DNA of 64,000 nucleotides from Anaerolineaceae bacterium UBA6073 (GCA_002436085.1 DIXT01000021.1:685-64684), one strand, 5' to 3'; positions 37,835 to 64,000 are shown, counted from the first letter of the stretch. The notes: generated from the sequence alone by a model not told the origin. Numbers and translations: made by a program.

Positions 37835-37876
37835 TAGCGGGGAGTGGATTCGAACCACTGACCTCCGGGTTATGAG
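37835..37876 (-). other. 3' fragment (anticodon loop to discriminator) of a tRNA-Met/fMet(CAT)-type gene; putative island attachment-site remnant
   Basis: Reverse complement reads CTCATAA CCCGG AGGTC AGTGG TTCGAAT CCACT CCCCGCT A. That is the anticodon loop, 3' anticodon stem, variable loop, complete T arm and 3' acceptor strand. The preceding sequence (..aaaatct) cannot pair with CCCGG, and no 5' acceptor strand (AGCGGGG) is present. Confidence 0.7.
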
Positions 37877-42221: not shown

Positions 42222-42522
42222 TTTACTTCCTTCAATGCCAAATCCATTGAATCTTTCAGGTCTAGATGATCAATGCCCGCAAGAACTATTCCACCTGCAC
42301 TAATCAGATCTATCGCTAAAGAAACCTAAATTATCATAATCCAGATTTCTTTATTTCTTGCGTCAGTTCCAATCAAAGTAAGCACTTGTTATTATCAATT
42401 TCAGACTGAAATGATAATAACATTGGATGTGCTCTCATTTATGATAATAGCCACTACCTGAAGACAACATCAAAGGTATTCATCCGAAATATTTCCGGAC
42501 TAGTGTTTTATCCTTGGCTAAA

Positions 42523-44436: not shown

Positions 44437-44646
44437 ATGGCCGACACGGATGAGTTCTGGACGGCAGAAGAAGTCTCAAATTACCTACGAATTCCGCAAT
44501 CGACCATTTACAAGCTCGCCCAAGATAAAGTGTTACCCGGTTTTAAGGTGGGAAAGCACTGGAGATTTCGCCGAGAGGCTATTCTTAAATGGATTGATGA
44601 CAGCGAAAATAAAAAATCAACTCCAACATCCGGTAACCTAAAGTAA
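44437..44646 (+). CDS. excisionase-family / MerR-like helix-turn-helix DNA-binding protein
   Basis: FWTAEEVSNYLRIPQSTIYKLAQDKVLPGFKVGKHWRFRREAILKWI is the typical excisionase-type HTH pattern. 69 aa. It ends 8 nt before drmD. Confidence 0.75.
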   Translation: MADTDEFWTAEEVSNYLRIPQSTIYKLAQDKVLPGFKVGKHWRFRREAILKWIDDSENKKSTPTSGNLK

Positions 44647-44654
44647 AACCTTCG

Positions 44655-47600
44655 ATGATTACAAACACTACTACTTCCATCCCCGAAATCGGACAAATCG
44701 TCACCGTACGTCAACGTCGGTATGTTGTATCTGACATACAGCAGAGTACAATCCCGCTTGAAGTCCTTTCGAAAAATGGGGATAAACCACAGCACCTGAT
44801 TTTCCTAAGCTCAATTGAAGATGATGCACTGGGGGAGACCCTTCAGGTTATTTGGGAGATCGAACCGGACGCCAGAATAAATGATAAATCGGGATTACCC
44901 GACCCAGCAGGGTTTGATTCTCCAATAAAGTTCGACGCTTTTATAAATGCAGTTCGTTGGGGAGCGATCAGCTCAGCAGATATCCGCTCCCTTCAAGCCC
45001 CTTTCAGAAGCGGCATAACCATTGAAGATTATCAATTGGATCCGCTCGTGCGTGCGGTTCAGATGCCACGTGCGAATTTACTGGTAGCTGATGATGTGGG
45101 TCTGGGTAAAACTATCGAAGCCGGCCTCATCGTACAGGAATTACTGCTGCGCAACCGGGCCCGAACAGTGTTGATTGTCTGCCCCTCTTCCCTGCAGATC
45201 CAATGGCGCGATCAAATGCGGGATAAGTTTGGGCTTGAGTTTCGTATTGTGGATGCAGAGTTGATGCGCACTTTACGTCGCACTCGTGGATTACATACCA
45301 ATCCATGGTCGCACTTTCCACGTCTGATTACCTCGATCGATTTTCTAAAACGTGATCGCCCCATGCGATTATTCAAAGAAATCCTACCTGCCGAGGATGA
45401 GCCAAAATACCCACGCAAATTTGACATCCTCATCATTGACGAAGCCCACAATATTGCCCCGGTAGGACGCGGTAAATATGCTACGGATTCCCTTCGAACG
45501 TTGGCCATTCGCACGATTGCTCCAAATTTCGAACATAAATTATTCTTAACCGCCACGCCTCACAACGGTTACAAAGAATCTTTTACCGCCTTGCTAGAAT
45601 TACTGGACAATCAGCGCTTTGCTCGTGGCATTGAGCCAGATCGACAGCAACTCCAGTTGGTGATGGTCCGGCGCATGAAAAGCGAACTGCCTCCCCAGTT
45701 TGATGGCACCCCTCGCTTCCCGAAACGTTCCATTCAGGCGATTGAAGTTTCTTACTCGGATGAGGAAAAGAAAGCTCACGCCTGGCTGCAGGAGTACACT
45801 GAACTGCGCCAGCAGAACCCAAAAGATGCCGTTGAGCGTTATGCAACCGAATTTATGATGAAGATGCTCAAGAAGCGGTTGTTTTCTTCGCCAGCTGCGT
45901 TCTTGCTCACCCTTGAACAACATTTAAAGACGCTTGAGAAGACGAAGACCCTTTCTGATCAGCATAAACCAGTCTTTGGCATTTTACGCCAGCAGCTTGA
46001 AGCCGCGGAGGAAGATGATCCACAAGAGACCTCTGAAGAACCAGGTGAAGATGTGATCTTGACAGCCACCCGCCTTTTCCGCCCGGTTACCCCCCGCGAA
46101 AAGGAATTATTAGATAACCTGCTGGCCTGGGCGAAGCGCTCCGCAGCCCGTCCAGACAGCAAAATCCAGGAACTACTGAAATGGTTGAAGACCAACATCA
46201 AACCCAATGGGGTCTGGTCCAATGAACGGGTAGTCATTTTCACTGAATACCGTGCAACGTTAAATTCACTACAGGAATTGCTCGCCATGGAAGGCTTTAC
46301 AGGTGATAACCGCTTGATGACCCTTTATGGCGGAATGGATGATGAAAAACGCGAGAGCGTCAAAGCTGCATTCCAGGCCCGACCAGAGATCAGCCCGGTG
46401 CGGATTTTATTGGCCACCGATGCGGCTTCAGAGGGTATTGACCTGCAAAACCATTGCCACTGTATTATCCACACGGAAATACCCTGGAATCCGAACCGCC
46501 TGGAACAGCGCAATGGCCGCCTTGACCGTCATGGGCAAACAAAGGATGTGTTGGTTCACCATTTTGTAACCAAAGGATTCCGCGATCAGGAGCAGAATGC
46601 ATGGGATGTGCGCGGACAGGGACTGGAAGCCGATCTGGAATTCCTTTTTCGGGCAGTGAAGAAGGTTGAACAAATTCGTGAAGACCTGGGTAAGGTTGGT
46701 CCCGTAATTGCCCTGCAGGTGGAAGAAGCCATGCTGGGCAAACGCCGCCATCTGGATACTGCTCAGGCAGAACGCGATAATGAACCGGTAAGGCGGATGC
46801 TGAAATTCGAGCGCGACTTGCGCGCTCAAATTGCCCGTCATATGGAGCAGCTTCAAGAAACACGCCAGACCATGAACTTTTCACCGGAAAACACCGAGAT
46901 CATCGTGGAAACCGCTTTGGAACTGGCAGGTCAGCGTGGATTAATCCCGGCGAAACTGCCTAAACTTCCTGGTGAGCAGCATCCGATCAACGGCACACCA
47001 ATCTATGAACTTCCGGCATTGACCGGCAGTTGGGCGGCTTGCGCAGAGGGGTTGGCGCACCCGCATACGGGCAAGATCCGCCCGATTACTTTTGACCATA
47101 ATGTAGTCGATGGGCGCGATGACGTGGTGCTGGCGCATCTCAACCACCGTCTGGTGCAGATGTCCTTGCGCCTGCTGCGCGCCGAGGTTTGGTCGCCGGC
47201 CAGCAAGAAGGGTTTGCACCGCCTGACTGCGCGGTTGGTTGCGGATACTGCACTCACCGACCCGGCAGTCATTGCTTTTGCACGGTTGGTTGTGACCGGC
47301 GGCGACCAGAACCGGCTGCACGAAGAGATTATTTCAACCGGAGGGTTTTTAAAGGAAGGTAAGTTCAACCGGATGAACGTCGGCCAGGTGACAAATGCCC
47401 TACAGGCCGCCACCGACCAGGAACCCAATGCAGCCATGCAGCAGCGCTTATTGGATCTCTATGCTCGCATGATTCCTTCTCTATCTTCTGCATTGGAAGC
47501 GCGCTGCAAAGACCGTATGGATGGCATCCAGAAATTGCTGACAGAACGCTCTGAGTTTGAAGCCAGAAGTATCGAAAGCGTCCTCAATGAGCTGGCCAGT

Positions 47601-47834
47601 TCCATCCGCCAGGAACTGGATGAGCCTGAAGTACTGCAGCTGGAATTGTTTACCAGCGAGGAAAAGGAACAATTGAATCGCAACATGGACGCTCTACGGC
47701 GAAGGCTGGCAGCTATTCCGGGCGAAATTGAGCAGGAAAAAATGGTGATTCAAAAAAGGTTCTCGGACCCGCAGATACGTATGTTTCCGGTTGCAATCAT
47801 GTTTCTCGTTCCCGAGAAATATTCACGCGGATAA
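44655..47834 (+). CDS. drmD: SNF2-family helicase, DISARM class 1 DrmD-like
   Basis: Motif I LLVADDVGLGKTIEAG, motif II ILIIDEAHNIAP, C-terminal helicase LLATDAASEGIDLQ and NPNRLEQRNGRLDRHGQ. First large gene of the operon. Confidence 0.8.
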   Translation: MITNTTTSIPEIGQIVTVRQRRYVVSDIQQSTIPLEVLSKNGDKPQHLIFLSSIEDDALGETLQVIWEIEPDARINDKSGLPDPAGFDSPIKFDAFINAVRWGAISSADIRSLQAPFRSGITIEDYQLDPLVRAVQMPRANLLVADDVGLGKTIEAGLIVQELLLRNRARTVLIVCPSSLQIQWRDQMRDKFGLEFRIVDAELMRTLRRTRGLHTNPWSHFPRLITSIDFLKRDRPMRLFKEILPAEDEPKYPRKFDILIIDEAHNIAPVGRGKYATDSLRTLAIRTIAPNFEHKLFLTATPHNGYKESFTALLELLDNQRFARGIEPDRQQLQLVMVRRMKSELPPQFDGTPRFPKRSIQAIEVSYSDEEKKAHAWLQEYTELRQQNPKDAVERYATEFMMKMLKKRLFSSPAAFLLTLEQHLKTLEKTKTLSDQHKPVFGILRQQLEAAEEDDPQETSEEPGEDVILTATRLFRPVTPREKELLDNLLAWAKRSAARPDSKIQELLKWLKTNIKPNGVWSNERVVIFTEYRATLNSLQELLAMEGFTGDNRLMTLYGGMDDEKRESVKAAFQARPEISPVRILLATDAASEGIDLQNHCHCIIHTEIPWNPNRLEQRNGRLDRHGQTKDVLVHHFVTKGFRDQEQNAWDVRGQGLEADLEFLFRAVKKVEQIREDLGKVGPVIALQVEEAMLGKRRHLDTAQAERDNEPVRRMLKFERDLRAQIARHMEQLQETRQTMNFSPENTEIIVETALELAGQRGLIPAKLPKLPGEQHPINGTPIYELPALTGSWAACAEGLAHPHTGKIRPITFDHNVVDGRDDVVLAHLNHRLVQMSLRLLRAEVWSPASKKGLHRLTARLVADTALTDPAVIAFARLVVTGGDQNRLHEEIISTGGFLKEGKFNRMNVGQVTNALQAATDQEPNAAMQQRLLDLYARMIPSLSSALEARCKDRMDGIQKLLTERSEFEARSIESVLNELASSIRQELDEPEVLQLELFTSEEKEQLNRNMDALRRRLAAIPGEIEQEKMVIQKRFSDPQIRMFPVAIMFLVPEKYSRG

Positions 47835-47870
47835 TAACTTTCTGATTAGCAACTTTTCGAGGGAGTTTTT

Positions 47871-49409
47871 ATGGCCATTTCAAAAAAAGCAATCAACAAG
47901 GGAAATGCCGAAGAAGGTTCAGGAATTCGTCAATCTGATAATCGGATAAGCGTTAGTATTTATTTTTCTGATTATTTCAATGTCAGCCCAAGATTGCTTG
48001 AGGAGTATGGTGCCTTTAATATATCACTTGTTAATGATCTTCCATTGTTTATTGACCCATTTTTATTATTCACTTCTACGCGGGATGAATATCGTCAATT
48101 ACACGATGGCATTATTCGTTACCTCCGGTTTCTACGCGATAAATCAATTAGCGGAAAGATTACCCCCGGTTTATTATTGGCTTGGTTTATGTTCAAGGAG
48201 GTTAAGCAAACCTGGCTTGGTTTTTCGCGCTTCGGTAATAGTGGTAGTGGCTTAGGCATGGATTTCGGTCGAGCCCTAAATGAAAACCTCATTAGAGTGT
48301 TTTCAGATTTTGGAAATGAACGAATTACACATGGAAGTCACCTTGAAAAATTGTGTTTGATAAATGAGGGTGTAGGCAGAGACAACATTAGTGACTTTTC
48401 AACTAATTTAATAAAGGAATACTTGCTTAGTTACACTCAGAAGTTTGCCCAGGAAAATATTGCACCCGACCTGCTGGGGAAGTATCGAGTCCCCAAAGTA
48501 CGGTTCAATTATGAAACGGAAAAATGGGAGTCTGAATTATTTAATCTCCCTGTTTACAATGGTGATTATGTTATCTTGACCCCAGTGGATATGCTTACAA
48601 AGGATTCGATTTGGATCAACAGGGAGGACTTGGTCAAGAATTTTAGGGAAATAGCCGAGTCCGTTCCTGATGAGCAACTTAGGGCTGAACTTAACAATTA
48701 CCTCTCAGCCGAAATACCAAAAGATGCAAAGTCAAAAGAGATTAACACTGTTCACGCAAGCGCTTATAAAGTTTTTCCTAAACTCCTTGAATACTATATC
48801 AAATACAAAGAAGATCATGGCGAGGAAGCTAAAGCTTTAAGTGAAACAAATGTCGAGGAATCCAAGCTTCTTTTTATTGACCAGGTTGTTGATTTCATAA
48901 TTTCTCTGTCGAATAACACAGGCTTTTATCAAACCAGCGGTGACACTCTAAAAGACGCCTACGATCGCGTCATGTTTATGAAGCACGTGATAGAGCATCA
49001 AGACGGTTATAGACTTTTCTATATCAATGGTGAACCTGTTAAACGCGAAAGCGACGTCCAACTAATTTTTAAATTTACCTGGTTTGCATCGCCCTCTGAT
49101 ATTAATGCTGAGGTTAACAATGGGCGCGGTCCAGTTGATTTTAAAGCATCGCGGGGGGCTTATGACAAGTCACTCATTGAGTTTAAACTTGCGTTGAATA
49201 CCCAATTACGGCGCAATCTTCAAAACCAGGTCGAAATCTATAAAATGGCGAATGATACGGAAAAAGCTTTGAAAGTGATTGTTTATTTTTCTGAATTGGA
49301 ACTTCTTAAAGTACAGGCTATATTAGAAGAACTTGAATTGAAAGACGAAAGATCCATCATCCTTATTGACGCAAGAGCAGACAACAAACCATCTGCATCT
49401 AAGGCTTAA
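47871..49409 (+). CDS. hypothetical protein with C-terminal PD-(D/E)xK-like nuclease motif
   Basis: 512 aa, AT-rich gene. The C-terminal ..ESDVQLIF..GRGPVDFKASRGAYDKSLIEFKLA.. fits the E...PD...ExK arrangement. Ends 3 nt before drmMI. Confidence 0.6.
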   Translation: MAISKKAINKGNAEEGSGIRQSDNRISVSIYFSDYFNVSPRLLEEYGAFNISLVNDLPLFIDPFLLFTSTRDEYRQLHDGIIRYLRFLRDKSISGKITPGLLLAWFMFKEVKQTWLGFSRFGNSGSGLGMDFGRALNENLIRVFSDFGNERITHGSHLEKLCLINEGVGRDNISDFSTNLIKEYLLSYTQKFAQENIAPDLLGKYRVPKVRFNYETEKWESELFNLPVYNGDYVILTPVDMLTKDSIWINREDLVKNFREIAESVPDEQLRAELNNYLSAEIPKDAKSKEINTVHASAYKVFPKLLEYYIKYKEDHGEEAKALSETNVEESKLLFIDQVVDFIISLSNNTGFYQTSGDTLKDAYDRVMFMKHVIEHQDGYRLFYINGEPVKRESDVQLIFKFTWFASPSDINAEVNNGRGPVDFKASRGAYDKSLIEFKLALNTQLRRNLQNQVEIYKMANDTEKALKVIVYFSELELLKVQAILEELELKDERSIILIDARADNKPSASKA

Positions 49410-49412
49410 ACC

Positions 49413-52400
49413 ATGTCCATCGCCCGACACCACAACGAATGGCTTTCTCTGATTGAAATATCCGGCCCGTTTTTGAGCCTGCCGGTGCTGATGCGCACCT
49501 TCCCGCAGGGATTGGACGCGCTTGACCGCGATGGCCTGGCGGAACTGCGCCTGGCATATGAGGAATGGCTGGATGACCAAAACAGCCTGCGCCCCTCACC
49601 GGCTATTCATTCGGTGTGGGTACGTTATGTGCTCGAACACGTTCTCGGCTTTGAAAAAAGCCATCTGCTCGAGGGTCCGGCGATACCGGCGACCCTGCAA
49701 GCCTTTGTTGCCGAACAGGGCGAGACCCTGCGCCCCGACCTCGTTGTATCTAATTCCCCTCTCCTCCCAGGAGAGGGGTTAGGGGTGAGGTTACTGGTTC
49801 AGGTTTGCCCCATGACCCAGGGGCTGGAAGAATCCATGCTGAATCACCGCTGGAAAGCCTCGCCGGCCATGCGCATGCTCGAACTGCTGCGCGCTACTGG
49901 TGTTTCGTTGGGTCTGGTGACCAACGGCGAGCAGTGGATGCTGGTCAACGCGCCTAAGGGCGAGACCAGCGCGTTTGTCTCCTGGTATGCCGCCCTGTGG
50001 TTGGAAGAGCCGCTCACTTTGCGGGCTTTCTCTTCATTACTAGGTGCAACACGTTTCTTCTCGGTGGCGGACGAGGATACCCTGGAAGGCATGCTCAAGG
50101 ACAGCGTCAACGAGCAGCAGGAAGTCACCGACCAGTTGGGCTACCAGGTGCGCCGGGCGGTGGAGGTATTGATCCGCGCCATTGATAAGGCCGACCAGGA
50201 CTGCGGTCGAACGCTTTTGAAGGACATTCCGGAAAAAGACCTGTACGAGGCTGCCCTGACGGTGATGATGCGTCTTGTTTTCCTCTTTTCCGCCGAAGAG
50301 CGCGGACTGTTGCTGCTGGGCGACCCGCTTTACGATCAGAACTATGCGGTCTCTACCCTGCGCGCCCAGTTGCGTGAAACCGCCGATCAGCAGGGTGAAG
50401 AGGTGCTGGAGCGCCGCTTCGATGCCTGGTGCCGACTGCTGGCCACCTTCCGTGCCGTGCATGACGGCATTCACCACGACCGTCTGAACCTGCCGGCTTA
50501 CGGCGGCAGCCTGTTTGATCCTGATCGTTACCCATTTTTGGAAGGAAGAATTGCCCTCATCCCTAACCCTTATCCCGAGAGGGGAAGGGAATCCCCTCTC
50601 CCCGCCGCTTCGGCGCTCCGTAGGGAGCCGGGAGAGGGCAAGGGTGAGGGTCCGCTTCCCATCTCGAACCGCACGGTGCTGCATCTGTTGGAAGCGCTGC
50701 AGGTGCTGCGTGTCAAGGTTCCGGGCGGTGGACCCGCCGAAGCCCGTCGGCTCTCCTTCCGCGCGCTGGATGTGGAGCAGATCGGTCACGTCTATGAAGG
50801 CTTGCTGGATCATATTGCCGTGCGCGCCAGCGAACCCGTGCTGGGGCTGGCTGGCACACGCGAGAAAGAACCGGAGCTATCGCTGCCCACTCTGCGGGTG
50901 GAAGAAGCCAAAGGCGAGAAGAATTTTCTTGCCTATCTTAAAGAGCAAACCGGGCGGTCAGAAAACGCGCTGCGCAAAGCCCTGCAGGAAAGACCGGACG
51001 TGTTCACCAACCAGCACTTGCTCATTGCCTGTAACAACGATGCAAAGATGCTGGAGAGGGTGGCGCCGTACGCCGGTCTGCTGCGCGAGGATGACTTTGG
51101 CTACCCAGCGGTTTTCTTACCGGGCAGCGTGTACGTCACCGCCGGAGCCACGCGCCGCGCCACCGGCACACACTACACTCCACGCAGTCTGACCGAGCCG
51201 ATTGTGCAGCACACCCTCGAGCCGCTGGTTTATACCGGCCCAGCCGAGGGGCTGCCCAAAGAACAGTGGACGCTCAAATCTCCCGCGGAACTGCTGGATC
51301 TGAAGGTTTGCGACATGGCCATGGGTTCTGCCGGTTTCCTGGTGCAGGTGATCCGCTACCTCTCGGAGCGGTTGGTAGAAGCCTGGGATCAAATCTCCCC
51401 AGAACCATTTGCTAAATCTCAACCTTCGGAAATATCTGGAATTCCTGTAGAAGTCCCTCACCCCAGCCCTCTCCCAGCGGGAGGGGTGGTAGCTAAGGAA
51501 GCATTATCGCCTGAAATGCTGGAGCGGGTGCGGGAACTGCGTAAGAACGCAACGGAGGCGGAAGCTTTTCTATGGGAATTGTTGCGCGACCGCCAATTGG
51601 CTGGTTTCAAATTCCGCCGCCAGCATCCCCTGGGCGGAACCATTCTTGATTTTTACTGCCATGAAGTCCACCTGGCCGTTGAGATCGACGGCGCCGTCCA
51701 CAAGGAACCGGAACAGGCCCAGCACGACGCCGAACGCTCCGCCTATCTGAACGAACAGGGAATCCGGGTCATTCGCTTCTGGAACCACGAAGTCCTGAAT
51801 CAAACAGATGCCGTTCTAAAGAAAATTCTGAAAGAGTTTCAGTCGTCTGCTTCTCCAGTGCTCCCTTCTCCCAGTGGGAGAAGGGCTGGGGATGAGGGCC
51901 GCTTCCTCCGCATCACCCCCGAAGGCCAGCCCGCCAGCGGCAAACCCAATGAGATCATTATTCCCAAGGACGATGAAGAGCGCCTGGTGCTGGCCCGCCG
52001 CCTGGTGGCCGATCGCTGCATCTACGGGGTGGACAAGAACCCTCTGGCGGTGGAGATTGCCAAGCTGTCGATCTGGTTAACCACCATGGACAAGGGCCGG
52101 CCCTTCACCTTTCTGGATCACGCCCTCAAATGCGGCGATTCGCTGGTGGGTGCGGATGAAGACATGTACCGCAAATGGGCCTACAGCCTGAAAGGCGCCC
52201 AATTCACACTTTACCTGACCACGCTGGAGGAATTTACCGCAGCCGCCCGGCAGAAACGCAGGGAACTGGAAAGCTTCACCGTGCTGGACGTGCGCGATGC
52301 CGAACACAAAGCCGAACTGTTGAAAGAAGCCGACGCCGCCATGGCGCGCGTGAAACTGGGCTGCGACCTGCTGGTGGGTGTGCGTCTGCTGGGATTGAAA

Positions 52401-55288: not shown

Positions 55289-56476
55289 GTAGTCAGTCTT
55301 AATGGATAAGATGGAATAATCCTTGCAACCAATGGGGCGAGGAGACCTCCAAAATGCCAAAGAAACTGTACCATATAAACTTAAATGATGAAGAACAACA
55401 GACATTGTTCGAAATGACTCGAAAAGGCAAAATCAAAGCACGCCAGATGAAACGGGCAATGATTTTACTGAAAGCAAACGAGGGTTTGTCAGATCCACAG
55501 ATCATGGCGGCATTGAATGTAAGCCGACCTTGTGTTGAACGAATCCGCAAGCGGTTTGTGTTGGGTGGCTTGCAAAAAGCGTTGAATGAAGATCCTCGAC
55601 CTGGGCAAAGACGGAAATTGGATGGTCGAGGCGAAGCCACCTTAATAGCAACAGCTTGCAGCCAGGTTCCAGAAGGGCATGAGCATTGGACTCTGCGTTT
55701 ACTGGCAGGAAAGATGGTTGAACTGGAAGTGGTGGACTCGATCTCACATGAAACTATCCGCCGAACGCTAAAAAAAATGAGATAAAGCCCTGGCAGAAAG
55801 AAATGTGGTGCATTCCAGAAGCCAGTGCGGAATATGTGGCTTGCATGGAAGATGTTCTGGATCAATATGAACGGCCCTACGATGGCAGCTCCCCCCAGGT
55901 TTGTTTTGATGAAGGGCAGAAACAGTTGATTGAAGAAACTCGGAAGGGATATCCGTGCAAAGCAGGGTACAAAAGACGCTACGATTATGAGTACAAACGC
56001 AATGGTGTTCGCAACTTGAACATGCTTTATGAACCTTTGTCTGGGAAACGATATGTAAGAATCACAGAACGGCATACCATGGTTGATTTTGCACAATGTA
56101 TGAAATGGCTGGTGGATGAGCTCTATCCGGATGCCATCCTGATCCGCGTTGTTATGGACAACCTCGGCACACATAAGCCAGCTTCTCTGTACGAAGCATT
56201 TCCACCACAAGAAGCCCGCCGGATTCTCAAAAAGTTGGAATTTCATTACACCCCAAAACATGGCAGTTGGCTGGATATGGCAGAAATTGAGTTGAGTGTA
56301 TTTAGCCGAAAGCTGAAACAGCACATACCCGACGAAACCCTTCTCAAAACGGAGGTGCAAGCCATTGTGGAGGAGCGAAACAGCGTCCATTCGATTATTA
56401 AATGGCAATTCCGAACTGAAGACGCTCGCATCAAGTTGAAGCAGCTTTATCCATCTGTTTCTGCCTGACCGACTAC
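55289..56476 (+). mobile_element. IS630-family insertion sequence (1188 bp) with TA target duplication
   Basis: Terminal inverted repeats GTAGTCAGTC (55289-55298) and GACCGACTAC (56467-56476) match at 9 of 10 positions. TA lies on both sides (55287-55288 and 56477-56478). Encodes a two-ORF IS630-type transposase. Confidence 0.85.
55354..56468 (+). CDS. IS630-family transposase (orfA HTH + orfB DDE, joined by a -1 frameshift in an A8 run)
   Basis: orfA 55354-55785 carries HTH domains. orfB (frame -1) carries DDE-domain blocks (VCFDEGQKQL, VVMDNLGTHK, YTPKHGSWLDMAEIE). Slipping -1 in AAAAAAAA (55770-55777) yields ..TLKKNEIKPWQKEMWCIPE.., the junction typical of IS630 transposases. Confidence 0.85.
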
Positions 56477-56867
56477 TAGCAATATTCGATGAATTAGCAG
56501 GAAAAATCGAATTATTAAAAAAGATAATCAATGAAAGGTTTTCCTATAAGAAACTAGAAATTAGCAAAGACAAAGGTTTCATATTTATGACCACACAAGG
56601 GGAAGAACTCCCGCCAGACGCTTTATCGTCAGGTGAGCAGCATGAATTGGTCATGTTTTATGAATTCCTGTTTAAAGTACCCAAAGGATCTCTGCTTTTG
56701 ATCGATGAACCTGAACTTTCTTTGCACATAGATTGGCAGCAAAGGTTCTTAAAGGATTTAATTGAAATTGCTGAATTAGCGGGGTTTGATGTCGTGATAG
56801 CGACCCATGCACCATCGATCATCAATAACTTTTGGTCACTAGCAGTAGATTTAGGGGAATTGGATAA

Positions 56868-57809
56868 ATGACCATTGCAGCAAACAGTATTACCAAGCAT
56901 TTGAAACCAAGTGATATTGCCAATGAAGCAAGGATGAAGCGAGGCCCGACTGAAAGACGAACTGGTAAGAAGTTGGCATTAGTCATAGTTGAAGGTTGTG
57001 CAGATCAACTCTTGTACACCACAATTTTGGATATATCCAAGTGTTTGGTCATAACGGCCTATGGAAAAAACAATGCAATCCAAGCTCTTCAAATCTTATT
57101 AACTGAAAATACACCAGGCGTAATGGGTCTCGTTGATGATGATTTTGATTCTTTGGAAGAAAGAAATTTACGAAGTGTAAACCTTGCTGTTTCTGACACC
57201 CATGATCTCGAGACATTGTTGTTTGTAGCAAGTTCACTGGATAAACTTTTAAACACATTACTGCTACCTGAAAAAAGGGAATATCTGGTTGTGTTATGTG
57301 AGAATGTAAGGAAAAAAATAATTGAATTAGGAAGCCCAATTGGTTTTATTCGGTGGTTATTTCAAAAGGAAAATGTATTGATTGATTTCCGAAATGTGTC
57401 ATTCAGGGCATTTATCGATCCTAGGCGATTGACGGTTGATGTAGATGCTTGTGTTGGGGAAATTCTTTCAAGGAACGGGGGATTCAGAATGTCGAAGCAG
57501 GATATTCAAAAAAGATTACCTGAACTCATGAAAACGTCTCCTAATCCGTGGTCGCTCTGCCAGGGACATGATCTTGTGAAAATTCTTTTGTTAATCATGC
57601 CCCAATTATTATCAGGTTATGCACCTTCAAATAAAGATGAGGCTCGTTTGTATTTTGAGCAAATTCAACAAAAAGTTCCTACTGAGGCTCGTTTAACAGA
57701 GCAGTTGATAATGTGTTATGAACAAGATGAATTTAGAAAGACCAATATCTATAAAGATATTAAGCAATGGGAAAATCGGAATTCGCCTTACCAAATAGCG
57801 CGATCATAA
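56868..57809 (+). CDS. DUF4435 / TOPRIM-like protein (PARIS AriB-like)
   Basis: LALVIVEGCADQLLY (TOPRIM Glu) and VMGLVDDDFDSL (DxD) as in DUF4435 proteins. ATGA overlap with the ATPase C-terminal fragment. Confidence 0.65.
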   Translation: MTIAANSITKHLKPSDIANEARMKRGPTERRTGKKLALVIVEGCADQLLYTTILDISKCLVITAYGKNNAIQALQILLTENTPGVMGLVDDDFDSLEERNLRSVNLAVSDTHDLETLLFVASSLDKLLNTLLLPEKREYLVVLCENVRKKIIELGSPIGFIRWLFQKENVLIDFRNVSFRAFIDPRRLTVDVDACVGEILSRNGGFRMSKQDIQKRLPELMKTSPNPWSLCQGHDLVKILLLIMPQLLSGYAPSNKDEARLYFEQIQQKVPTEARLTEQLIMCYEQDEFRKTNIYKDIKQWENRNSPYQIARS

Positions 57810-57841
57810 GCGGGAAAATATCATGAAGGGCAAAGAAGTAT

Positions 57842-60800
57842 ATGTCAGATGAATTAATACCACCTTCCGCAAATCAAATTCGTTCAGAACTTCAAGATCT
57901 CATCCTGCGCGACCTGCTCGGCCCAGCCGGCGGGGAAGAAGAAATTATCGATGAGTCCTACGTGCGCGACCGCTACATCCTCGGCCTGCTGGCGCCGCGC
58001 GGACAGAGCGTCATCCCCGAAGAGGAAGAAGATCTGGCTTTTACCGATGGAGATGGTGAAGAAGGCACGGTAGAACCCACCACCATCCGCAATTCCACCC
58101 TACTGCCCTCCTCCATGGGGTTGACCTTTACCGTGGATGCCTCTGCCACTGCTATCCAGATCAAAGCCCGTTGGGGCCGCTATGAACGCATTGCAAGCGA
58201 GGAACTGGGTCTTGAGCTGGAGAAACCCCATCCGGTGTGGAAGCGCATGCCGGTGGAAATGCTCTCCCCTGCCATAGTGCTCACACCCGGACGGATGAAG
58301 CGCTGGGTTCCAAACCCGAATTACCCCGACGTCTATGTGGATGGCTTATTTCGTCAACGCAATGGCGAATGGGTGATCACCCTCTTTTTGGTGAACGCCC
58401 AGGAAGAACCCAAAAAGCTGCGCGATACGGCCTGGCTGTTCCAACCCGAGCTGACGGTTAGTGCACCGGATGGGGCAGCTATCTTCCGCCAGCGGCGTAC
58501 TTTGCGTAACTGCCATGCGGATGAAGAAGAGGCCGCCATGGCAATGCTCTACCGTGAGCAGGTGGAATTCGCCGTCGGCCACGGCGTGGCCGTGCATGCT
58601 GAGCTGGCGCCCGGTGCGGTTGACCGGGCTGTCTCGTTGAAAACCATCATTGCTCCGGCATTTGAATTGCCGCGTGTCACTCCGCCCACCAGCGCGGAGA
58701 TTCCCGGCCTGCAGGGGCTGGTGCTGGATATGAAAACGCTTTCCGGATTGGCAGACAGCGAATTGGCCAAAGCACTGAGTCCCCTGACTGCCGCCTATGC
58801 AGACTGGATTGAGGGACTGGAAAAACAGTTGGCGCATAGTTCGGCCGATCTGGAGCCGTATCACACCACCGCCCTGCAAACCATCGATACCTGCAAACAA
58901 AATCTAAAGCGCATTCAGGCTGGCATTGATCTCCTTGCAGTCAGCCCGCAGGCAGCCGAAGCCTTCCGTTTTGCCAACAACGCCATGGCGCTGCAGCGCA
59001 TTCACACCCTGCACTCCGAATCGATCCGCCGTGAAGAGAGCACAACACTGGAAGAACTGGATATTGAAAAGAACCGCACCTGGTATCCTTTCCAGTTGGC
59101 CTTCATCCTGCTAAATCTGCCTGGACTTACCGATCCGCACTCTGCGGAGCGCAGCCATCCTACTCAGGCTATTGCGGATGTACTCTGGTTCCCCACCGGC
59201 GGCGGAAAAACTGAAGCCTATCTGGGCTTGACCGCCTATACCCTGGCCATGCGCCGTTTGCAGGGCATGATTGGCGGCTATGACGGCAGCGCCGGCGTAG
59301 CGGTGCTAATGCGTTACACCCTGCGCCTGCTCACCTTGCAGCAGTTTCAACGTGCCGCTGCTCTGATATGCGCCTGCGAAAGCATCCGCCGGGAGGATGT
59401 GGCAAAATGGGGCGCTGAACCCTTCCGCATTGGATTGTGGGTGGGTCAGCGCAGCACCCCCAACTGGAATGCCGACAGCGATGAAATCGTTAAAGAATAC
59501 CGCAAAACCGGCTATTTCCGCTCCACCGCCACCGGCGGCTCGGGATCACCGCATCAATTAACCAACTGCCCCTGGTGCGGCGCGCCGATCAACCCGGGCA
59601 CTGACATTGTTGTCGAGACCTACAAACACGGTTCCTGCCGCACAATCGTTTATTGCCCATCCAACGCCTGCATTTTTAATCAAAAGAATGCCAAACGGGA
59701 GGGCTTACCGATTTTGGTGGTGGATGAAGAAGTTTACCGCCGCCTGCCCTCGCTGCTGATTGCCACCGTGGATAAATTTGCCCAGATGCCCTGGAAGGGC
59801 GAAGTGCAGATGCTGTTTGGCCGGGTGAATGGTTATTGCAGCCGGCACGGCTACCGTTCTCCCGATATCGAGGATAAGAACACTCACCCGGCGGATAAAG
59901 TTTTCGGACTGCCGGCAGCAGAAACCGAAGAGAAGAGTTGTCTGCGTCCCCCGGATCTGATCATTCAGGACGAATTGCACCTCATCAATGGCCCCCTGGG
60001 TACCCTGGTCGGGTTGTATGAAACCGCGGTCGATAACCTGTGCAATTGGGAATTGGATGGCAAGACCGTGCGGCCGAAAGTGATTGCTTCCTCTGCAACG
60101 ATCCGCAAAGCGCCGGCGCAAATCAACAGCCTTTATTTGCGCCAGATCAACATCTTCCCGCCGAATGGCTTGCTGATCAAAGATAATTTCTTCTCCCGCC
60201 AACGCACACCGGATGAGACTAATCCCGGAAGGGTTTATTTGGGTATTTGTGCACCAGGCTCGCGCCTGAAAGTGGTGATGATCCGCTCCTATGTCGCAGT
60301 GCTATCCGCTGCGCAGAAGTTATATGAAAAATATGGCGGGCTGGTGGATCCTTATATGACCCTGGTTGGTTATTTTAACGCCATGCGTGACCTGGGCGGT
60401 TTGCGCAGGGTATTGGATGATGCCATTCGCACCCGTTTGCGACACATGGAAAAGCGGGGATTGTCCAACCGTAATCTGGATACATACAGCATCGCCGAAT
60501 TAACTTCGCGCATCGGTGCGACGGATATTCCGGAAATTCTGGATCGGCTGGGCGCGGCCTTTGACCCCCAGCGGGATGACGAACGCAAGAAAAAGCGCAA
60601 AGCCGGCGAGAAAGTTGCTTCTTCCAGTTACCCCATCGATACCTTGCTGGCGACGAACATGATTTCGGTTGGTGTGGATGTGCCCCGCCTGGGACTAATG
60701 GTGGTAGCCGGACAGCCCAAGTACACCAGTGAATATATTCAGGCAACCAGCCGTATTGGTCGTCGTTTCCCAGGTCTGGTGGTAACGGTTTATAACTGGG

Positions 60801-61354
60801 CTCGTCCCAGGGATTTGAGCCATTACGAGCGGTTTGAGCATTACCATTCAACCCTATACCAGCAGGTTGAAGCATTATCCGTGACGCCGTTCTCACCGCG
60901 TGCCATCGATCGAGGATTGACTGCACTGTTGGTTTCTTTCCTGCGCCTTTATGGATTTGATTTCAATAGTAATGAAAGCGCTGAAAAACTGACCCGAGAT
61001 CACCCGACAGTGAAATTAGCCATCGATGAGATTTGCCGGAGAGCAGGATTGGTAACAGGCAGCATACAAGTCGAGCAAGACGTGCGATCTGAACTGAACA
61101 GCCGCATTGATCTCTGGCTTGCACGGGCTGCCAAGCTGGCAGCAGGCGGCTCCAAATTGGGCTATAAAGGCAAAGGTGATGGACGAACATTGGCATTACT
61201 GGGAACGCCCAACAAACAAGATCGGGATGTTTTCACTTGCCTGACCTCTTTACGGGATGTCGAACCTTCTGTAAATCTTGTGTTGAATAATTATGAAATC
61301 GAGACTCCTGCCAACAGTGTTGGAGTAGATCAAGAACAGGAGGCCGCCCAATGA
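57842..61354 (+). CDS. drmA: DExH superfamily-2 helicase, DISARM DrmA-like
   Basis: Motif I WFPTGGGKTEAYLGL, motif II LIIQDELHLINGPLGT, motif VI YIQATSRIGRRFPG. 1170 aa. Overlaps the following DUF1998 gene by 4 nt. Confidence 0.8.
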   Translation: MSDELIPPSANQIRSELQDLILRDLLGPAGGEEEIIDESYVRDRYILGLLAPRGQSVIPEEEEDLAFTDGDGEEGTVEPTTIRNSTLLPSSMGLTFTVDASATAIQIKARWGRYERIASEELGLELEKPHPVWKRMPVEMLSPAIVLTPGRMKRWVPNPNYPDVYVDGLFRQRNGEWVITLFLVNAQEEPKKLRDTAWLFQPELTVSAPDGAAIFRQRRTLRNCHADEEEAAMAMLYREQVEFAVGHGVAVHAELAPGAVDRAVSLKTIIAPAFELPRVTPPTSAEIPGLQGLVLDMKTLSGLADSELAKALSPLTAAYADWIEGLEKQLAHSSADLEPYHTTALQTIDTCKQNLKRIQAGIDLLAVSPQAAEAFRFANNAMALQRIHTLHSESIRREESTTLEELDIEKNRTWYPFQLAFILLNLPGLTDPHSAERSHPTQAIADVLWFPTGGGKTEAYLGLTAYTLAMRRLQGMIGGYDGSAGVAVLMRYTLRLLTLQQFQRAAALICACESIRREDVAKWGAEPFRIGLWVGQRSTPNWNADSDEIVKEYRKTGYFRSTATGGSGSPHQLTNCPWCGAPINPGTDIVVETYKHGSCRTIVYCPSNACIFNQKNAKREGLPILVVDEEVYRRLPSLLIATVDKFAQMPWKGEVQMLFGRVNGYCSRHGYRSPDIEDKNTHPADKVFGLPAAETEEKSCLRPPDLIIQDELHLINGPLGTLVGLYETAVDNLCNWELDGKTVRPKVIASSATIRKAPAQINSLYLRQINIFPPNGLLIKDNFFSRQRTPDETNPGRVYLGICAPGSRLKVVMIRSYVAVLSAAQKLYEKYGGLVDPYMTLVGYFNAMRDLGGLRRVLDDAIRTRLRHMEKRGLSNRNLDTYSIAELTSRIGATDIPEILDRLGAAFDPQRDDERKKKRKAGEKVASSSYPIDTLLATNMISVGVDVPRLGLMVVAGQPKYTSEYIQATSRIGRRFPGLVVTVYNWARPRDLSHYERFEHYHSTLYQQVEALSVTPFSPRAIDRGLTALLVSFLRLYGFDFNSNESAEKLTRDHPTVKLAIDEICRRAGLVTGSIQVEQDVRSELNSRIDLWLARAAKLAAGGSKLGYKGKGDGRTLALLGTPNKQDRDVFTCLTSLRDVEPSVNLVLNNYEIETPANSVGVDQEQEAAQ

Positions 61355-63222
61355 CCAGACCCAATAATATTAAAGTGGGAGAACTTAATCCATCCCAACT
61401 GCTCTATACCTATGGAGTCGGGGCAATTGTCGATTTGCCACATTTATCCGCCATCGTTTCCGGATTGGATGATTGGCCGGTAGATCCCGAATATGTTCGT
61501 GAAATCCAGGAAGAACGCCTGCTTTTTGCCCTGAAAGGTGAATTGGGGAATCAAGTGCAGCGACTGCTATCCCTGCCCAGCGTTCCAGATGTAGGCGGAA
61601 AACCTAATCCCTTTGATAAAGAAGCACATATCGGCGTGCCAGTCAGTACCTTCCCACAGTGGATGGTTTGCCCCTCATGTCAGGTGCTCGCTCCCACCCA
61701 GTCCGAGTTATTTGAACTGAAGGTGGATTATTATCATCCTGACCGAACGCATTATGAACATGTCAATTGTCAACGCGCAACCAAGCCAACAGCGTTGCCG
61801 GCGCGTTTCCTCGTGTGCTGTGAAAACGGCCATCTGGATGACTTCCCCTGGGTGGAATATGTTCATCATTTTGACCCGACCAAATATGATCACAAAAGCC
61901 TGACTTTGTCAGAATTTGGGCCATCTGGTGAGGCTCGTGATCTCTATGTGGAGTGCAATATTTGCGGTGCAAAACGGCAACTGGCTGAAGCTTTCGGACG
62001 TGAGAACCGTGAGAAAATGCCCATTTGCAAGGGTCGCCGGCCGCATCTCCATGATTACGATCCGGATGGTTGTGAACTCTATGTGCGTGCTATCTTGCTG
62101 GGTGCCAGTAACCTCTGGTTTCCATTTGTCCTCAACACAATTTCCATCCCTACCACCGCAGATAAGTTGGCCAATTTGGTTGCGGAAAATTGGGGCGAGT
62201 TAAGCCGCGTAGAAAAGGTTGATGAATTGGCATACATGGAGAAATGGGGGAAACTGAAAGCATTTGCAGAGTATGCTTTGTCTGATTTATGGGATGCCAT
62301 TAGTAAAAGAAAATCGCGCGAGACATCAAGCGAGAATGATGAACACCCTAATTTGCTAACCCCAGAATGGGCTGCGTTTACGACCCCTGCATCACAAAGC
62401 CAAACCCCTGATTTCAGATTGAAATCTGTAAATCCTCCCTCAAAGTATAAGGATGTATTTTCACAGGTCGTTCTGGTTGAGCGGTTGAGGGAAGTCAGAG
62501 CATTGGCTGGATTCACCCGGATCGACTCTCCTGGAGAAATGGCGGAAAGCGACGAGGAAGAAATTCAGGCTGTTTCACCCATCTCAAGAAAAAAGCCAAA
62601 TTGGATTCCAGCGATTGAAGTGCGAGGTGAAGGGATTTTCCTCCAATTTAGGGAATCAGAAATTCTCAAGTGGTTGGCTCAACCTGCGGTAAAAAACTGG
62701 GAAGCGATGTTCTTCCAGGCACATATCGAATGGCGCAAGAACCGCATGATCGAAAATCCAGAAGCAAATTTTCCTGGTTTGCGGTATGTTTTGTTGCACT
62801 CTTTTAGCCATGCGCTCATGCGCCAATTTGCCATGGAATGCGGATACACCCAGGCCAGTATTCGAGAACGGATCTATTCAAATAATCCAGGCCAGCCGGG
62901 TGATCCGATGGCTGGAATCCTTCTTTATACATCCGCTCCAGATTCGGAAGGTACACTGGGTGGTCTGGTAAGTTTGGGAGAACCCCATAATTTAGAGAGA
63001 CACATTGATTCCGCTCTTGAAGCGTGTGGTTTATGTGCATCTGACCCTACTTGTGCAGAACACATGCCCGGTTATGGTGCTTCAACGGTTCATGCGGCCG
63101 CCTGTCATTCTTGTCTCTTCTCGCCCGAAACTTCTTGCGAAAGAGGTAATCGCTATCTTGACCGTTCAGTACTGGTTTCAACCGTCAGCCATGATAATCA
63201 CCGGTTTTTCAGCCATGAATGA
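61351..63222 (+). CDS. drmB: DUF1998 domain protein, DISARM DrmB-like
   Basis: LLHSFSHALMRQ block, GTLGGLVSLG, and the terminal Cys cluster CGLCASDPTCAEH..AACHSCLF are typical of DUF1998. 623 aa. Confidence 0.8.
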   Translation: MTRPNNIKVGELNPSQLLYTYGVGAIVDLPHLSAIVSGLDDWPVDPEYVREIQEERLLFALKGELGNQVQRLLSLPSVPDVGGKPNPFDKEAHIGVPVSTFPQWMVCPSCQVLAPTQSELFELKVDYYHPDRTHYEHVNCQRATKPTALPARFLVCCENGHLDDFPWVEYVHHFDPTKYDHKSLTLSEFGPSGEARDLYVECNICGAKRQLAEAFGRENREKMPICKGRRPHLHDYDPDGCELYVRAILLGASNLWFPFVLNTISIPTTADKLANLVAENWGELSRVEKVDELAYMEKWGKLKAFAEYALSDLWDAISKRKSRETSSENDEHPNLLTPEWAAFTTPASQSQTPDFRLKSVNPPSKYKDVFSQVVLVERLREVRALAGFTRIDSPGEMAESDEEEIQAVSPISRKKPNWIPAIEVRGEGIFLQFRESEILKWLAQPAVKNWEAMFFQAHIEWRKNRMIENPEANFPGLRYVLLHSFSHALMRQFAMECGYTQASIRERIYSNNPGQPGDPMAGILLYTSAPDSEGTLGGLVSLGEPHNLERHIDSALEACGLCASDPTCAEHMPGYGASTVHAAACHSCLFSPETSCERGNRYLDRSVLVSTVSHDNHRFFSHE

Positions 63223-64000
63223 AAACTCGTTAGTCCTTCTTATATCTGATTTCGTTCAAAGTACACCTTCTGAAATTATTTACGAAGTACTGAAAATAAT
63301 TCGTGAATGGCATTCAACTCCATCAGATTTTCAGAAGACAAAATTGTTGTCATCCATCCAGAGCCCTCACAGTAAAGACAAACTCAAAAAGATAATTGAT
63401 TGCTGGGTAAAGGATTTTCCGCAATTAACATCCGACGGAGTTTGCTTATCCATTCAATCCTCTTTAGCGACTTTTAGAACATTACTTACTCCGTTATTGG
63501 AATTGATTTGGACTGGACCTGAGGATTTGACAACTAACTTACGCCGGACGGATCAGGCTTTATTAGAACTAATTCAAGGAGCAAATAAGCACCTTTTAAT
63601 GGTTAGCTTTGCAGTGTATAAAGCCCAGCCAATACTAGATGCGATTGAAGCTGCGATTCTCAGGAACGTGAAGGTGATCATTTGCCTGGAAGATTTGGAT
63701 GGGAGCCAAGGAAAATTATCATTCTCAGGTCTAAACGCCTTTTCAGAAAGTGTTTTCAAGCTCGCCTCGTTTTACACGTGGCCAATTGAGAATCGCCCAC
63801 TTACAGCTGATGGGAAATTTGGCTCTTTGCATGCCAAAATTGCCGTTGCTGACCGAGAAAAAGTATTTATTTCCAGTGCCAATCTAACGGATTACGCCAT
63901 GGATTTAAATATAGAAATGGGAGTGCTTCTAAAAGATAAAGCAATTGGGGAACAAATCAACAACCTATTTAATAATATGATTTTGAATTCTGTTTTTCGG
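63215..64000 (+). CDS. drmC: phospholipase-D-family (HKD) nuclease, DISARM DrmC-like; 3' end outside the window
   Basis: The ATG at 63215 overlaps the drmB stop by 8 nt. The frame is open for 262 codons to the window edge (MNENSLVLLISDF...). HKD motif SLHAKIAVADREKVFISSANLTDYA. Absent from the ORF track because no stop is reached. Confidence 0.75.
   Translation, partial: MNENSLVLLISDFVQSTPSEIIYEVLKIIREWHSTPSDFQKTKLLSSIQSPHSKDKLKKIIDCWVKDFPQLTSDGVCLSIQSSLATFRTLLTPLLELIWTGPEDLTTNLRRTDQALLELIQGANKHLLMVSFAVYKAQPILDAIEAAILRNVKVIICLEDLDGSQGKLSFSGLNAFSESVFKLASFYTWPIENRPLTADGKFGSLHAKIAVADREKVFISSANLTDYAMDLNIEMGVLLKDKAIGEQINNLFNNMILNSVFR

Follow-up and report, generated by a model that had tools for sequence, protein, structure and literature searches.

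A class 1 DISARM operon with nested cargo genes in a probable tRNA-Met island of an uncultured Anaerolineaceae bacterium

Class 1 DISARM Genes in the Window

The stretch of DNA discussed here, called the window throughout, is 64,000 nucleotides (nt) long and comes from Anaerolineaceae bacterium UBA6073 (GCA_002436085.1, DIXT01000021.1:685-64684), an uncultured member of Chloroflexota. With high confidence, its last part, positions 44437-64000, can be read as a single co-directional operon for a class 1 DISARM defence system, located inside a defence island of at least 26 kb that was inserted at a tRNA-Met gene. From 44437 to the window end, the + strand is occupied by an unbroken row of co-directional open reading frames (ORFs), whose intergenic distances range from -8 to 80 nt if an insertion sequence (IS) described below is excepted. 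The gaps are 8 nt at 44646/44655, 36 nt at 47834/47871 and 3 nt at 49409/49413, and there are overlaps of 4 nt between drmA and drmB (61354/61351) and of 8 nt between drmB and drmC (63222/63215). Since DISARM itself and the nesting of genes within it are both already known, the locus is a well-documented example and not a discovery.

Which genes make a locus a class 1 DISARM system? The definition tested here is the wording of Aparicio-Maldonado et al. (10.1101/2021.12.28.474362), in which the DISARM core consists of drmA (pfam00271), drmB (pfam09369) and drmC (pfam13091), and in class 1 this core is preceded by a SNF2 helicase gene, drmD (pfam00176), and an adenine methylase gene, drmMI (pfam13659). 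When protein models of PADLOC, Pfam and NCBIfam, the last with curated bit cut-offs, were applied to the window, drmA, drmB, drmC, drmD and drmMI were all found. The first of them, drmD (44655..47834, + strand like the whole operon), encodes a SNF2-family helicase of 1059 amino acids (aa), which is matched by PADLOC DrmD at E=0 (1391.6 bits) and by NCBIfam DISARM_DrmD at 1315.6 bits against a cut-off of 610; Pfam places SNF2-rel_dom (E=7.9e-14) and Helicase_C on it, the motifs DDVGLGKT and DEAHN are located at aa 146 and aa 262, and the DpdE and BrxH models of PADLOC are resembled more weakly. The product of drmMI (49413..54200, +) is an MmeI/Eco57I-type N6-adenine methyltransferase of 1595 aa (PADLOC DrmMI E=0, 1645 bits), in which Pfam recognizes Eco57I, MmeI_TRD, MmeI_Mtase and MmeI_N, the N6_Mtase family being matched as well. 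Its motif I reads DMAMGSAGFLV, and GNPPFMGG starts at aa 1055 with the NPPF of motif IV at aa 1056; no DISARM (DrmMI) model matched in the NCBIfam search of this protein.

The three core genes follow after an interval to be described below. A DExH helicase of 1170 aa is encoded by drmA (57842..61354, +), and it belongs to the short form, as NCBIfam DISARM_DrmAS scores 1373.1 against 950 and its match spans profile positions 1-1165 of 1165. PADLOC DrmA matches it at E=0 and Pfam Helicase_C at E=6.8e-6, and the protein has PTGGGKTEAY (Walker A) at aa 451, QDELHL at aa 709 and QATSRIGRR (QxxGRxGR) at aa 967. Next, drmB (61351..63222, +) encodes a DUF1998/MZB protein of 623 aa (NCBIfam DrmB_fam 686.2 against 240; PADLOC DrmB E=3e-86; Pfam MZB, PF09369, formerly DUF1998, E=2.7e-10), with LLHSFSHALMR at aa 481 and a cluster of cysteines at its C-terminus. 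The last gene, drmC (63215..64000, +), encodes a protein of the PLD/HKD nuclease family (PADLOC DrmC E=1.4e-59; Pfam PLDc_2 E=2.6e-17), whose HxK(x)4D motif, HAKIAVAD, is at aa 206 and is followed by SSANLT at aa 220. By their scores, the five DISARM matches are not due to chance, because the PADLOC E-values are 0 for DrmD, DrmMI and DrmA, 3e-86 for DrmB and 1.4e-59 for DrmC. In NCBIfam, the DrmD, DrmA, DrmB and DrmC models, three equivalogs and the DrmB subfamily model, were all passed above their curated cut-offs, and the alternative models DpdE, DrmD_b and DrmAL scored under theirs.

It is to be mentioned that the window end truncates drmC, with 261 of 269 codons inside and the last 8 codons and the stop beyond the edge. 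A metagenome contig, L001, is 100% identical to the window over 12,650 nt and carries the whole 269-aa drmC with its stop, so that the operon is complete in its source, and the DrmC protein taken from this contig reaches 185.9 bits with NCBIfam DISARM_DrmC_I (cut-off 133). In the source, the reading frames of the five DISARM genes are all intact and full length, and they keep their catalytic motifs. Directly 3′ of drmC, outside the window, is a 162-aa ORF (L001:12833-13321, around window 64183-64671) that is conserved in four contigs; it has no PADLOC match and no Pfam family on record.

An earlier note on this DNA, made by reading the sequence without databases, had already described the co-directional genes with tiny gaps and overlaps, and the ORF coordinates and junctions are exactly as it gave them, as is the presence of each motif in the ORF named. 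Its assignment to class 1 DISARM was borne out by PADLOC, Pfam and four NCBIfam models, and the DUF1998 and PLD assignments that it made for 61351-63222 and for 63215 onward agree with the Pfam matches to MZB/DUF1998 and PLDc_2. The recovery of the 3′ end of drmC, which it proposed, was achieved with L001; accordingly its word "complete" holds for the operon in the source, and in the window drmC stops after 261 of 269 codons. Its remark that gene-by-gene annotation would report only unrelated helicases and a methylase is outdated, since models for DISARM exist in NCBIfam and NCBI already calls near-identical proteins DISARM DrmD and DrmA: the same 90% clusters hold proteins called "DISARM system SNF2-like helicase DrmD" and "DISARM system helicase DrmA". 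Near-identical DNA was sought in collections of Escherichia coli genomes and of plasmids and gave no match in either, so the locus does not come from such a well-annotated replicon. Housekeeping proteins of the source contig, a pyrophosphatase and a photolyase, fall into clusters with proteins that are named from Anaerolineaceae MAGs.

The Island Boundary at tRNA-Met

How far does the defence island extend to the left? At 37835..37876 on the - strand, there is the 3′ half of a tRNA-Met gene (anticodon CAU), from the anticodon loop to the acceptor end, which matches Rfam tRNA positions 31-71 of 71 with 27.2 bits (E=5.4e-4). The Rfam scan of 37-45 kb was blank until the stretch was cut at the junction, by which a truncated tRNA match became permitted. 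The tRNA half is followed by its native hairpin and T-run at around 37797-37828, and directly to its right the GC content falls from about 0.58 to about 0.46, so that the tRNA 3′ segment and the compositional shift by which an island is recognized are found together. Another contig from the same metagenome, L096, is identical to the window up to 37876 and then continues into different DNA, and three further contigs end at 37844-37876. A truncated tRNA, a shift of GC and breaks at one base are together the hallmark of an element that integrated site-specifically into the anticodon loop, and the tRNA-Met 3′ half is a probable scar of the left attachment site of the island. The site seems to have been used by more than one integrating element, because L096 as a second contig diverges at the same base, 37876.

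The tRNA linkage of the island, which had been noticed before, thus holds for this tRNA-Met(CAU) half at 37835-37876 and not for the intact tRNA-Val of the window. The latter (686-760) is the only intact tRNA of the window, and it was rejected as an anchor of the island as it is 43 kb off, with photolyase, H+-PPase, aldolase and other housekeeping genes in between; about 37 kb of such genes precede the defence genes.

Probable PARIS Module Split by an Insertion Sequence

Between drmMI and drmA, the operon carries what is probably a second defence system, PARIS, which consists of an ABC ATPase of 55 kDa, AriA, and a TOPRIM nuclease of 35 kDa, AriB (PMC11464382). The 5′ portion of ariA is at 54281..55288 (+) and is matched by PADLOC AriA/PtuA models and Pfam AAA_15 in their N-terminal part; its ORF continues to 55309 through IS-derived codons, giving 342 aa. 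The 3′ portion is at 56479..56871 (+), where Pfam AAA_21 (E=1.8e-13, the C-terminal end of the profile) and PADLOC AriA (E=2.5e-17) match and where a 94-aa ORF starts at 56587. With a 4-nt overlap with the ariA stop, ariB follows at 56868..57809 (+), encoding a DUF4435/TOPRIM effector of 313 aa (PADLOC AriB E=2.2e-19, its sole PADLOC family match; Pfam DUF4435 E=2.5e-10). This AriB is 92% identical to the AriB that adjoins an intact AriA in three contigs, L012, L013 and L014.

What splits ariA is an IS630-family element of 1,188 bp (55289..56476, +), having an HTH plus DDE_3 transposase, a duplicated TA at 55287-88 and 56477-78, and terminal inverted repeats (CTAGTAGTC / GACTACTAG), by all of which membership in the IS630 family is recognized. 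The transposase is divided into two ORFs, 55354-55785 and 55803-56468, with Pfam HTH_32 and DDE_3, and these correspond to profile positions 1-108 and 120-299, respectively, of NCBIfam transpos_IS630 (NF033545). The two frames are joined at a run of eight A residues (A8, 55769-55776), where a -1 frameshift would be needed; the frame of the second ORF is open across the run and reads the family-typical ...LKKNEIKPWQKEMWCIP. The join may reflect either programmed -1 frameshifting, or a mutation, or a one-base or assembly error. The second transposase ORF, of 221 aa, has 62 members in its 90% cluster, which indicates that the split form is common. A 410-aa ORF on the opposite strand (55299-56531) was taken as spurious, as it has no family match and is antisense to the transposase.

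When the IS and one TA are removed in silico, a 466-aa AriA ORF is restored, which had been split at codon 337. Compared along the full length with the intact AriA of L012, it shows 95.9% identity and has the same junction peptide, and L012 has the empty site. Therefore, from the TA duplication, the inverted repeats, the restored ORF and this empty site, the insertion is real and evolutionarily recent. The restored AriA is absent from the collection that was looked up by exact sequence, and the 96%-identical intact allele was reached by way of AriB. PADLOC AriA PDLC02979 matches the restored protein end to end (E=6.8e-22), and PtuA models do so nearly equally. Since ariA is split by the IS, the embedded PARIS is probably inactive in this copy.

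Several points weigh against reading the locus as a working class 1 DISARM operon with PARIS inside a tRNA-inserted island, and they are collected here. PF13659, the family published for drmMI, has no match in drmMI in the Pfam scan at E<=0.01, and the DrmMI call relies on the PADLOC DrmMI model, the Eco57I and MmeI_Mtase families and the NPPF motif. The PARIS call is based on moderate E-values, around 1e-19 to 1e-25, and its ATPase nearly ties with the PtuA models of Septu. No integrase was found in 37.9-64 kb, the source contig of 65,377 nt ending about 1.4 kb past the window and L001 809 nt past it, and a pattern search of the window for the attachment site found one copy only, the second copy not being seen. 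Counts of promoters and terminators across the operon are at or below those of shuffled sequence. Methylation, phage restriction and transcription are, for this locus, predictions from its genes. Finally, a polar effect of the IS on drmA, drmB and drmC is possible.

If this polarity were complete, the IS630 element in PARIS would block transcription of the three core genes, and what remains would be a decaying remnant with only its methylase at work. Such silencing is rather unlikely, but it deserves consideration: the IS lies upstream of all three core genes in a tightly packed operon, every recovered contig of the locus carries it (L001 has the whole IS and L002 begins within its right end), and the consensus scan gave no convincing internal promoter ahead of drmA. 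On the other hand, the scan relied on a sigma-70 consensus, which is of doubtful relevance in Chloroflexota, and the transposase is co-oriented with the operon, which permits read-through. All five DISARM ORFs are full length with intact catalytic motifs, and the products of drmA, drmB and drmC are 97-99% identical to those of two related loci, L009 and L010, so that no decay is visible. An intact DISARM operon with a broken PARIS module is thus the better reading of the locus.

DrmMI, a Composite Methyltransferase

The methyltransferase of this operon is larger than most of its relatives. DrmMI reaches 1595 aa because a DUF559 domain, having the fold of Vsr-like endonucleases, is inserted in frame together with proline-rich linkers at aa 665-831 (51405..51905, +; Pfam DUF559 E=5e-36), between methylase motif I and motif II (IYGVDKNPLAVEIAK). 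Such a domain is carried by about 10 of the top 120 DrmMI homologues, the remainder being 1340-1410 aa long, and it is absent from the related locus L005, whose DNA is 74% identical. The aligned DUF559 carriers share no more than 53-83% identity overall, and 9 of these 10 retain the motif ILDF...EIDG..H...RFWN.EV, the exception being P0123 with EIDD, and this conservation across such divergent carriers argues for a working domain. In another homologue, P0168 (1535 aa), families of protein phosphatases (PF00102, PF00782 and PF22784/5) are listed where the others list DUF559, which hints that DrmMI tolerates varied accessory domains.

A different kind of exchange is seen in the specificity (target recognition) region of drmMI (52560..53612, +). 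At around aa 1050-1400, the identity to some alleles drops to 20-47%, although these same alleles match the rest of the protein at 95-100%, and the GC content is 0.35-0.43 in this region, whereas the 5′ part of drmMI has about 0.58-0.63. The pattern of identity and GC indicates that the region was exchanged by a recombinational swap. In some class 1 DISARM loci, the specificity domain of drmMI is known to be changed by a programmed-inversion shufflon (PMC9881135). An inversion shufflon was rejected for this gene, as there are no long inverted repeats within 37.8-64 kb.

Genes Carried in Two Slots of the Operon

The operon contains two further genes that are not in the five-gene definition. At its head is a gene for a 69-aa DNA-binding protein of the HTH_17 type, excisionase-family and MAD1-like (44437..44646, +; Pfam HTH_17 E=4.2e-15). 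NCBIfam gives it 53.3 bits with an excisionase domain (cut-off 28.8) and 64.4 bits with the MADS1 model, below the cut-off of 80. The gene is kept at 96% identity in the equivalent position in L009 and L010, and its product is a probable transcriptional regulator. At the drmD|drmMI junction is a gene for a 512-aa protein (47871..49409, +) whose homologues carry PF28123 and PF28130 (DUF8370/DUF8371), the N-terminal half matching PADLOC PDC-M36A at E=1.3e-20. In 29 sequences of this family, D423 is near-invariant and E437-F-K439 is invariant, which suggests a PD-(D/E)xK-like nuclease at the C-terminus. The AlphaFold model has a pLDDT of 73; no sequence match was obtained in the PDB, and Foldseek gave nothing significant (best E=0.15).

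The DUF8370/1 family has more than 6,000 detectable homologues, some of them outside DISARM. Those with 66-94% identity occupy the same drmD|drmMI junction in L005, L009, L010 and a Smithella contig, and those around 60% identical are solitary or stand beside GmrSD and type I restriction-modification (RM) genes (L007, L008). In L015, DrmA is 96% identical to that of the window, yet DUF8370/1 is absent and the slot has other content, and in more distant DISARM loci (L059, L063, L068, L074, L079, L086, L088 and L091) drmD directly abuts drmMI. Because it is absent from equally close loci and drmD and drmMI are adjacent elsewhere, the DUF8370/1 gene is, by its distribution, cargo in a first slot and no universal DISARM subunit, and it is a candidate embedded defence gene.

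What about the second slot, between drmMI and drmA? L009 and L010 have the HTH gene, DrmD, DUF8370/1, DrmMI with DUF559, DrmA, DrmB and DrmC as in the window, and they carry a 318-aa gene and a HamB-like helicase gene instead of PARIS. The window therefore differs from these two loci, whose DrmA, DrmB and DrmC were compared above, only in its PARIS-plus-IS cargo. For the 318-aa protein that accompanies the HamB-like helicase in L009, HamA was considered as an identity, and no PADLOC or Pfam match was found for it. In L011 and L005, the slot contains GmrSD, CHAT, DUF5677 or a transposase. A scan with DrmA of species-representative genomes yielded 80 loci, spread over Chloroflexota, Cyanobacteria, Planctomycetota, Acidobacteriota and further phyla; in the 45 of them with both genes visible, the gap between drmMI and drmA varies from 18 nt to 9.7 kb, and 98 of the 153 ORFs in these gaps are singletons. 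Recurrent contents are a UvrD/GajB-like helicase (12 loci), GmrSD (5) and AAA_15/21 ATPases (4), and rarer ones are single HEPN, TIR and DUF559 genes and two transposases. From these comparisons of gene content, both the drmD|drmMI and the drmMI|drmA junctions are seen to act as cargo slots.

The UvrD/GajB-like helicase, of about 700 aa, is located directly 5′ of drmA in its 12 class 1 DISARM loci, which are mostly cyanobacterial (L033, L034, L037, L040, L045, L046, L047, L055, L066, L083, L085 and L091). It resembles ArmD of ARMADA II, a system treated below, and it may be a lineage-specific component of DISARM and not cargo.

The three contigs with intact PARIS give a hint of how cargo moves. 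In L012, and also in L013 and L014, the cassette lies outside any DISARM operon and has a remnant of DISARM on either side: upstream, drmMI is represented by its last 70 codons, which are fused to a 177-aa ORF ending in ...GKDPGYRKMGG (L012:8312-8521), and downstream, drmA is represented by its first 29 codons, after which there is a stop (L012:10975-11061). DNA homology of these contigs to the window covers 54075-57928 at about 93% identity. Such DISARM scars on free PARIS suggest, as far as can be judged from the remnants, either that cassettes travel with DISARM flanks or that the cassette stayed behind when the DISARM operon around it was deleted. The part of DrmMI retained on the 177-aa ORF of L012 is its C-terminal tail (window 54110-54200), the last 40 or so residues of which, WDRCKCLACDKTVMGFSIAEHTQSEH, have the arrangement C-x-C-x2-C...H-x5-H and look like a small zinc finger.

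The view that the operon departs from the canonical five genes through inserted modules, which the earlier note expressed, is correct in that extra modules are present. The departure is not unusual, because embedding in DISARM is already published by Payne et al. (2024; 10.1101/2024.01.29.577857). Neither are all the modules particular to this copy: PARIS-plus-IS does differ from the nearest loci, and HTH_17, DUF8370/1 and DUF559 are common to L009 and L010.

Could DUF8370/1, AriA/AriB and HTH_17 instead be obligate new subunits of an enlarged, lineage-specific DISARM? HTH_17, DUF8370/1 and the DUF559-bearing DrmMI are conserved jointly in L009 and L010, and all these genes are co-oriented with minimal spacing. 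Nevertheless, the idea is quite improbable, since DUF8370/1 homologues occur alone or near unrelated systems (L007, L008) and are missing from the equally close L015, PARIS is intact outside DISARM (L012-L014) and is replaced by another module in L009 and L010, and the DISARM ORFs are intact here despite the broken ariA. Cargo in a class 1 DISARM operon explains these modules better.

Comparison with Known Defence Systems

Class 1 DISARM as found in Serratia sp. SCBI was reportedly described by Ofir et al. in 2018. It serves here as the reference for class 1, through 10.1101/2021.12.28.474362 and Bravo et al. (2022; PMC9142583). The window operon has drmD, drmMI, drmA, drmB and drmC in the identical order, and its drmA-drmB-drmC are likewise contiguous with overlapping stops and starts. 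Unlike the Serratia system, it is without the cytosine methylase drmMII, has the HTH_17 head gene, the DUF8370/1 gene and DUF559 in DrmMI, and bears a PARIS cassette with IS630 between drmMI and drmA. The host here belongs to Chloroflexota and that of the Serratia system to Enterobacterales.

Payne et al. (2024) describe embedded genes in BREX, DISARM, type I RM and Hma systems, and they also argue that PARIS, when embedded, could serve as the back-up of a methylation-based system against phage inhibitors of the Ocr type (10.1101/2024.01.29.577857). As in the embedded genes of that paper, the cargo of the window is co-oriented and nested, and includes known systems, PADLOC candidates (PDC) and mobile elements; compared with the embedded PARIS that the searched text of the paper treats in a BREX context, the host operon here is DISARM, PARIS is inactivated by an IS, and there are two slots per operon. 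The module keeps the two-gene plan of PARIS, with a restored AriA of 466 aa and an AriB of 313 aa with DUF4435 whose ORFs overlap by 4 nt. Unlike PARIS in P4-like satellites or prophage hotspots, it is within a DISARM operon and its ariA is IS-split, and its similarity to the AriA and AriB models of PADLOC is only moderate. Similarly, the IS conforms to the IS630 family in its HTH plus DDE_3 transposase, TA duplication, short terminal repeats and length of about 1.2 kb, and it differs in having its transposase in two frames joined at the A8 run.

A rival among described systems is ARMADA II (ArmA-D) of E. coli O157:H7, which has a YprA helicase, DUF1998 and a vsr nuclease fused in ArmC, requires a UvrD-like ArmD and is without a PLD protein (PMC13463889). 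The window shares with it a SNF2 helicase, an MmeI-like adenine methylase, a YprA-type DExH helicase with DUF1998 and a vsr-type domain somewhere in the locus; unlike ARMADA II, it has separate DrmA and DrmB, it has DrmC, and its vsr-type domain is in the methylase. In the Pfam and PADLOC scans, no UvrD-like ORF was found in 44437-64000. That the locus is not DISARM at all, being instead a related system with SNF2, MmeI-like and YprA/DUF1998 proteins such as ARMADA or Druantia III, or a type IIG/ISP RM system beside helicases, is highly improbable: DrmMI does also match PADLOC REase_MTase_IIG at E=0, its DUF559 does recall the vsr-type domains of ArmC (PMC13463889), and DrmD is weakly similar to the DpdE and BrxH models, but helicase and DUF1998 are here separate genes followed by a PLD gene in DISARM order whereas ArmC and DruE are fusions, the UvrD-like ArmD is missing, and four NCBIfam DISARM models are passed by wide margins while DpdE, DrmD_b and DrmAL stay below their cut-offs.

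Proposed Mechanism and Implications

How might such a class 1 DISARM operon work? The following scheme is transferred to this locus by analogy with the Serratia and Bacillus systems, the definitions and mechanism being taken from 10.1101/2021.12.28.474362 and PMC9142583. DrmMI would N6-methylate adenines within a short, non-palindromic motif, which is determined by the swappable specificity region of the enzyme, and so mark host DNA as self. The DrmA-DrmB complex of helicase and DUF1998 protein would be auto-inhibited by a trigger loop and would load on single-stranded 5′ ends of incoming DNA, more readily if this is unmethylated. DrmD, the SNF2 protein, and DrmC, the PLD protein, would act as auxiliary or effector components; in the DISARM systems studied, DrmC is a dispensable PLD nuclease (PMC9142583). 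If PARIS were restored, AriA would be expected to sense anti-restriction proteins and then to release the AriB TOPRIM nuclease onto host tRNA (PMC11464382).

Then, where would DNA cleavage come from? That DrmMI could cut DNA by means of its Vsr-like domain is a speculation, although the idea is reasonable because ARMADA II, a relative of DISARM, bears vsr-type nuclease domains on its helicase. A bolder proposal is that DUF559 in DrmMI solves the problem of the "missing nuclease" of DISARM and, at the same time, that the two junctions are true sites of cassette exchange. In this proposal, the Vsr-type domain would make DrmMI a type IIG/ISP-like cutter working with DrmAB, to which the PD-(D/E)xK-like DUF8370/1 protein might add, and the last approximately 126 nt of drmMI and the first approximately 87 nt of drmA would mediate swaps of defence systems via homologous recombination. 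The cassette exchange is hinted at because DISARM scars remain on free PARIS in L012-L014; the proposal as a whole is tentative, and we consider it unlikely to be true in both of its parts.

What the locus contributes is one more well-documented case, and no principle that would be new; it is a clean natural example of defence nested in defence in Chloroflexota. Three layers of turnover are seen in one operon, namely, replacement of the cassette between drmMI and drmA, swapping of the methylase specificity and knock-out of the PARIS sensor by an IS. If it is true that the Vsr-like domain of DrmMI is an active nuclease, this bears on what destroys DNA in DISARM, as DrmC is dispensable (PMC9142583). 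Worth keeping are the IS-split PARIS with its empty site, the linker-flanked Vsr-like domain in a methylase, and the DISARM scars on free PARIS.

Other Genes of the Island

Between the tRNA-Met scar and the operon, the island holds further candidates for defence genes. At 38401-39789 (+) is a gene for an ATPase_2 plus DUF234 protein (PADLOC PDC-S27 E=3.4e-55), which is split into ORFs of 315 aa and 127 aa in the JGI copy L095, and at 39943-41694 (-) is one for a SWIM/TPR protein (PDC-S62 E=1.9e-21). Upstream of the DISARM operon and divergent from it is a RosmerTA-like toxin-antitoxin pair (42738-44256, -), in which the gene of an HTH plus M78 peptidase protein (RmrA E=1.7e-49) overlaps a 164-aa PIN-like (DUF3368) ORF. 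A weak match to the abiF RNA family at 41828-41866 (-), between the SWIM and HTH_3 genes, has 25.8 bits against a gathering threshold of 37 (E=0.34) and is probably due to chance. Lastly, a 43-nt direct repeat is found in two intergenic places, 38327-38369 and 42312-42354; its copies are 79% identical, with the core ATTATCATAATC.(A/G)GATTTCTTTAT, and it may be an operator or promoter element common to both places.

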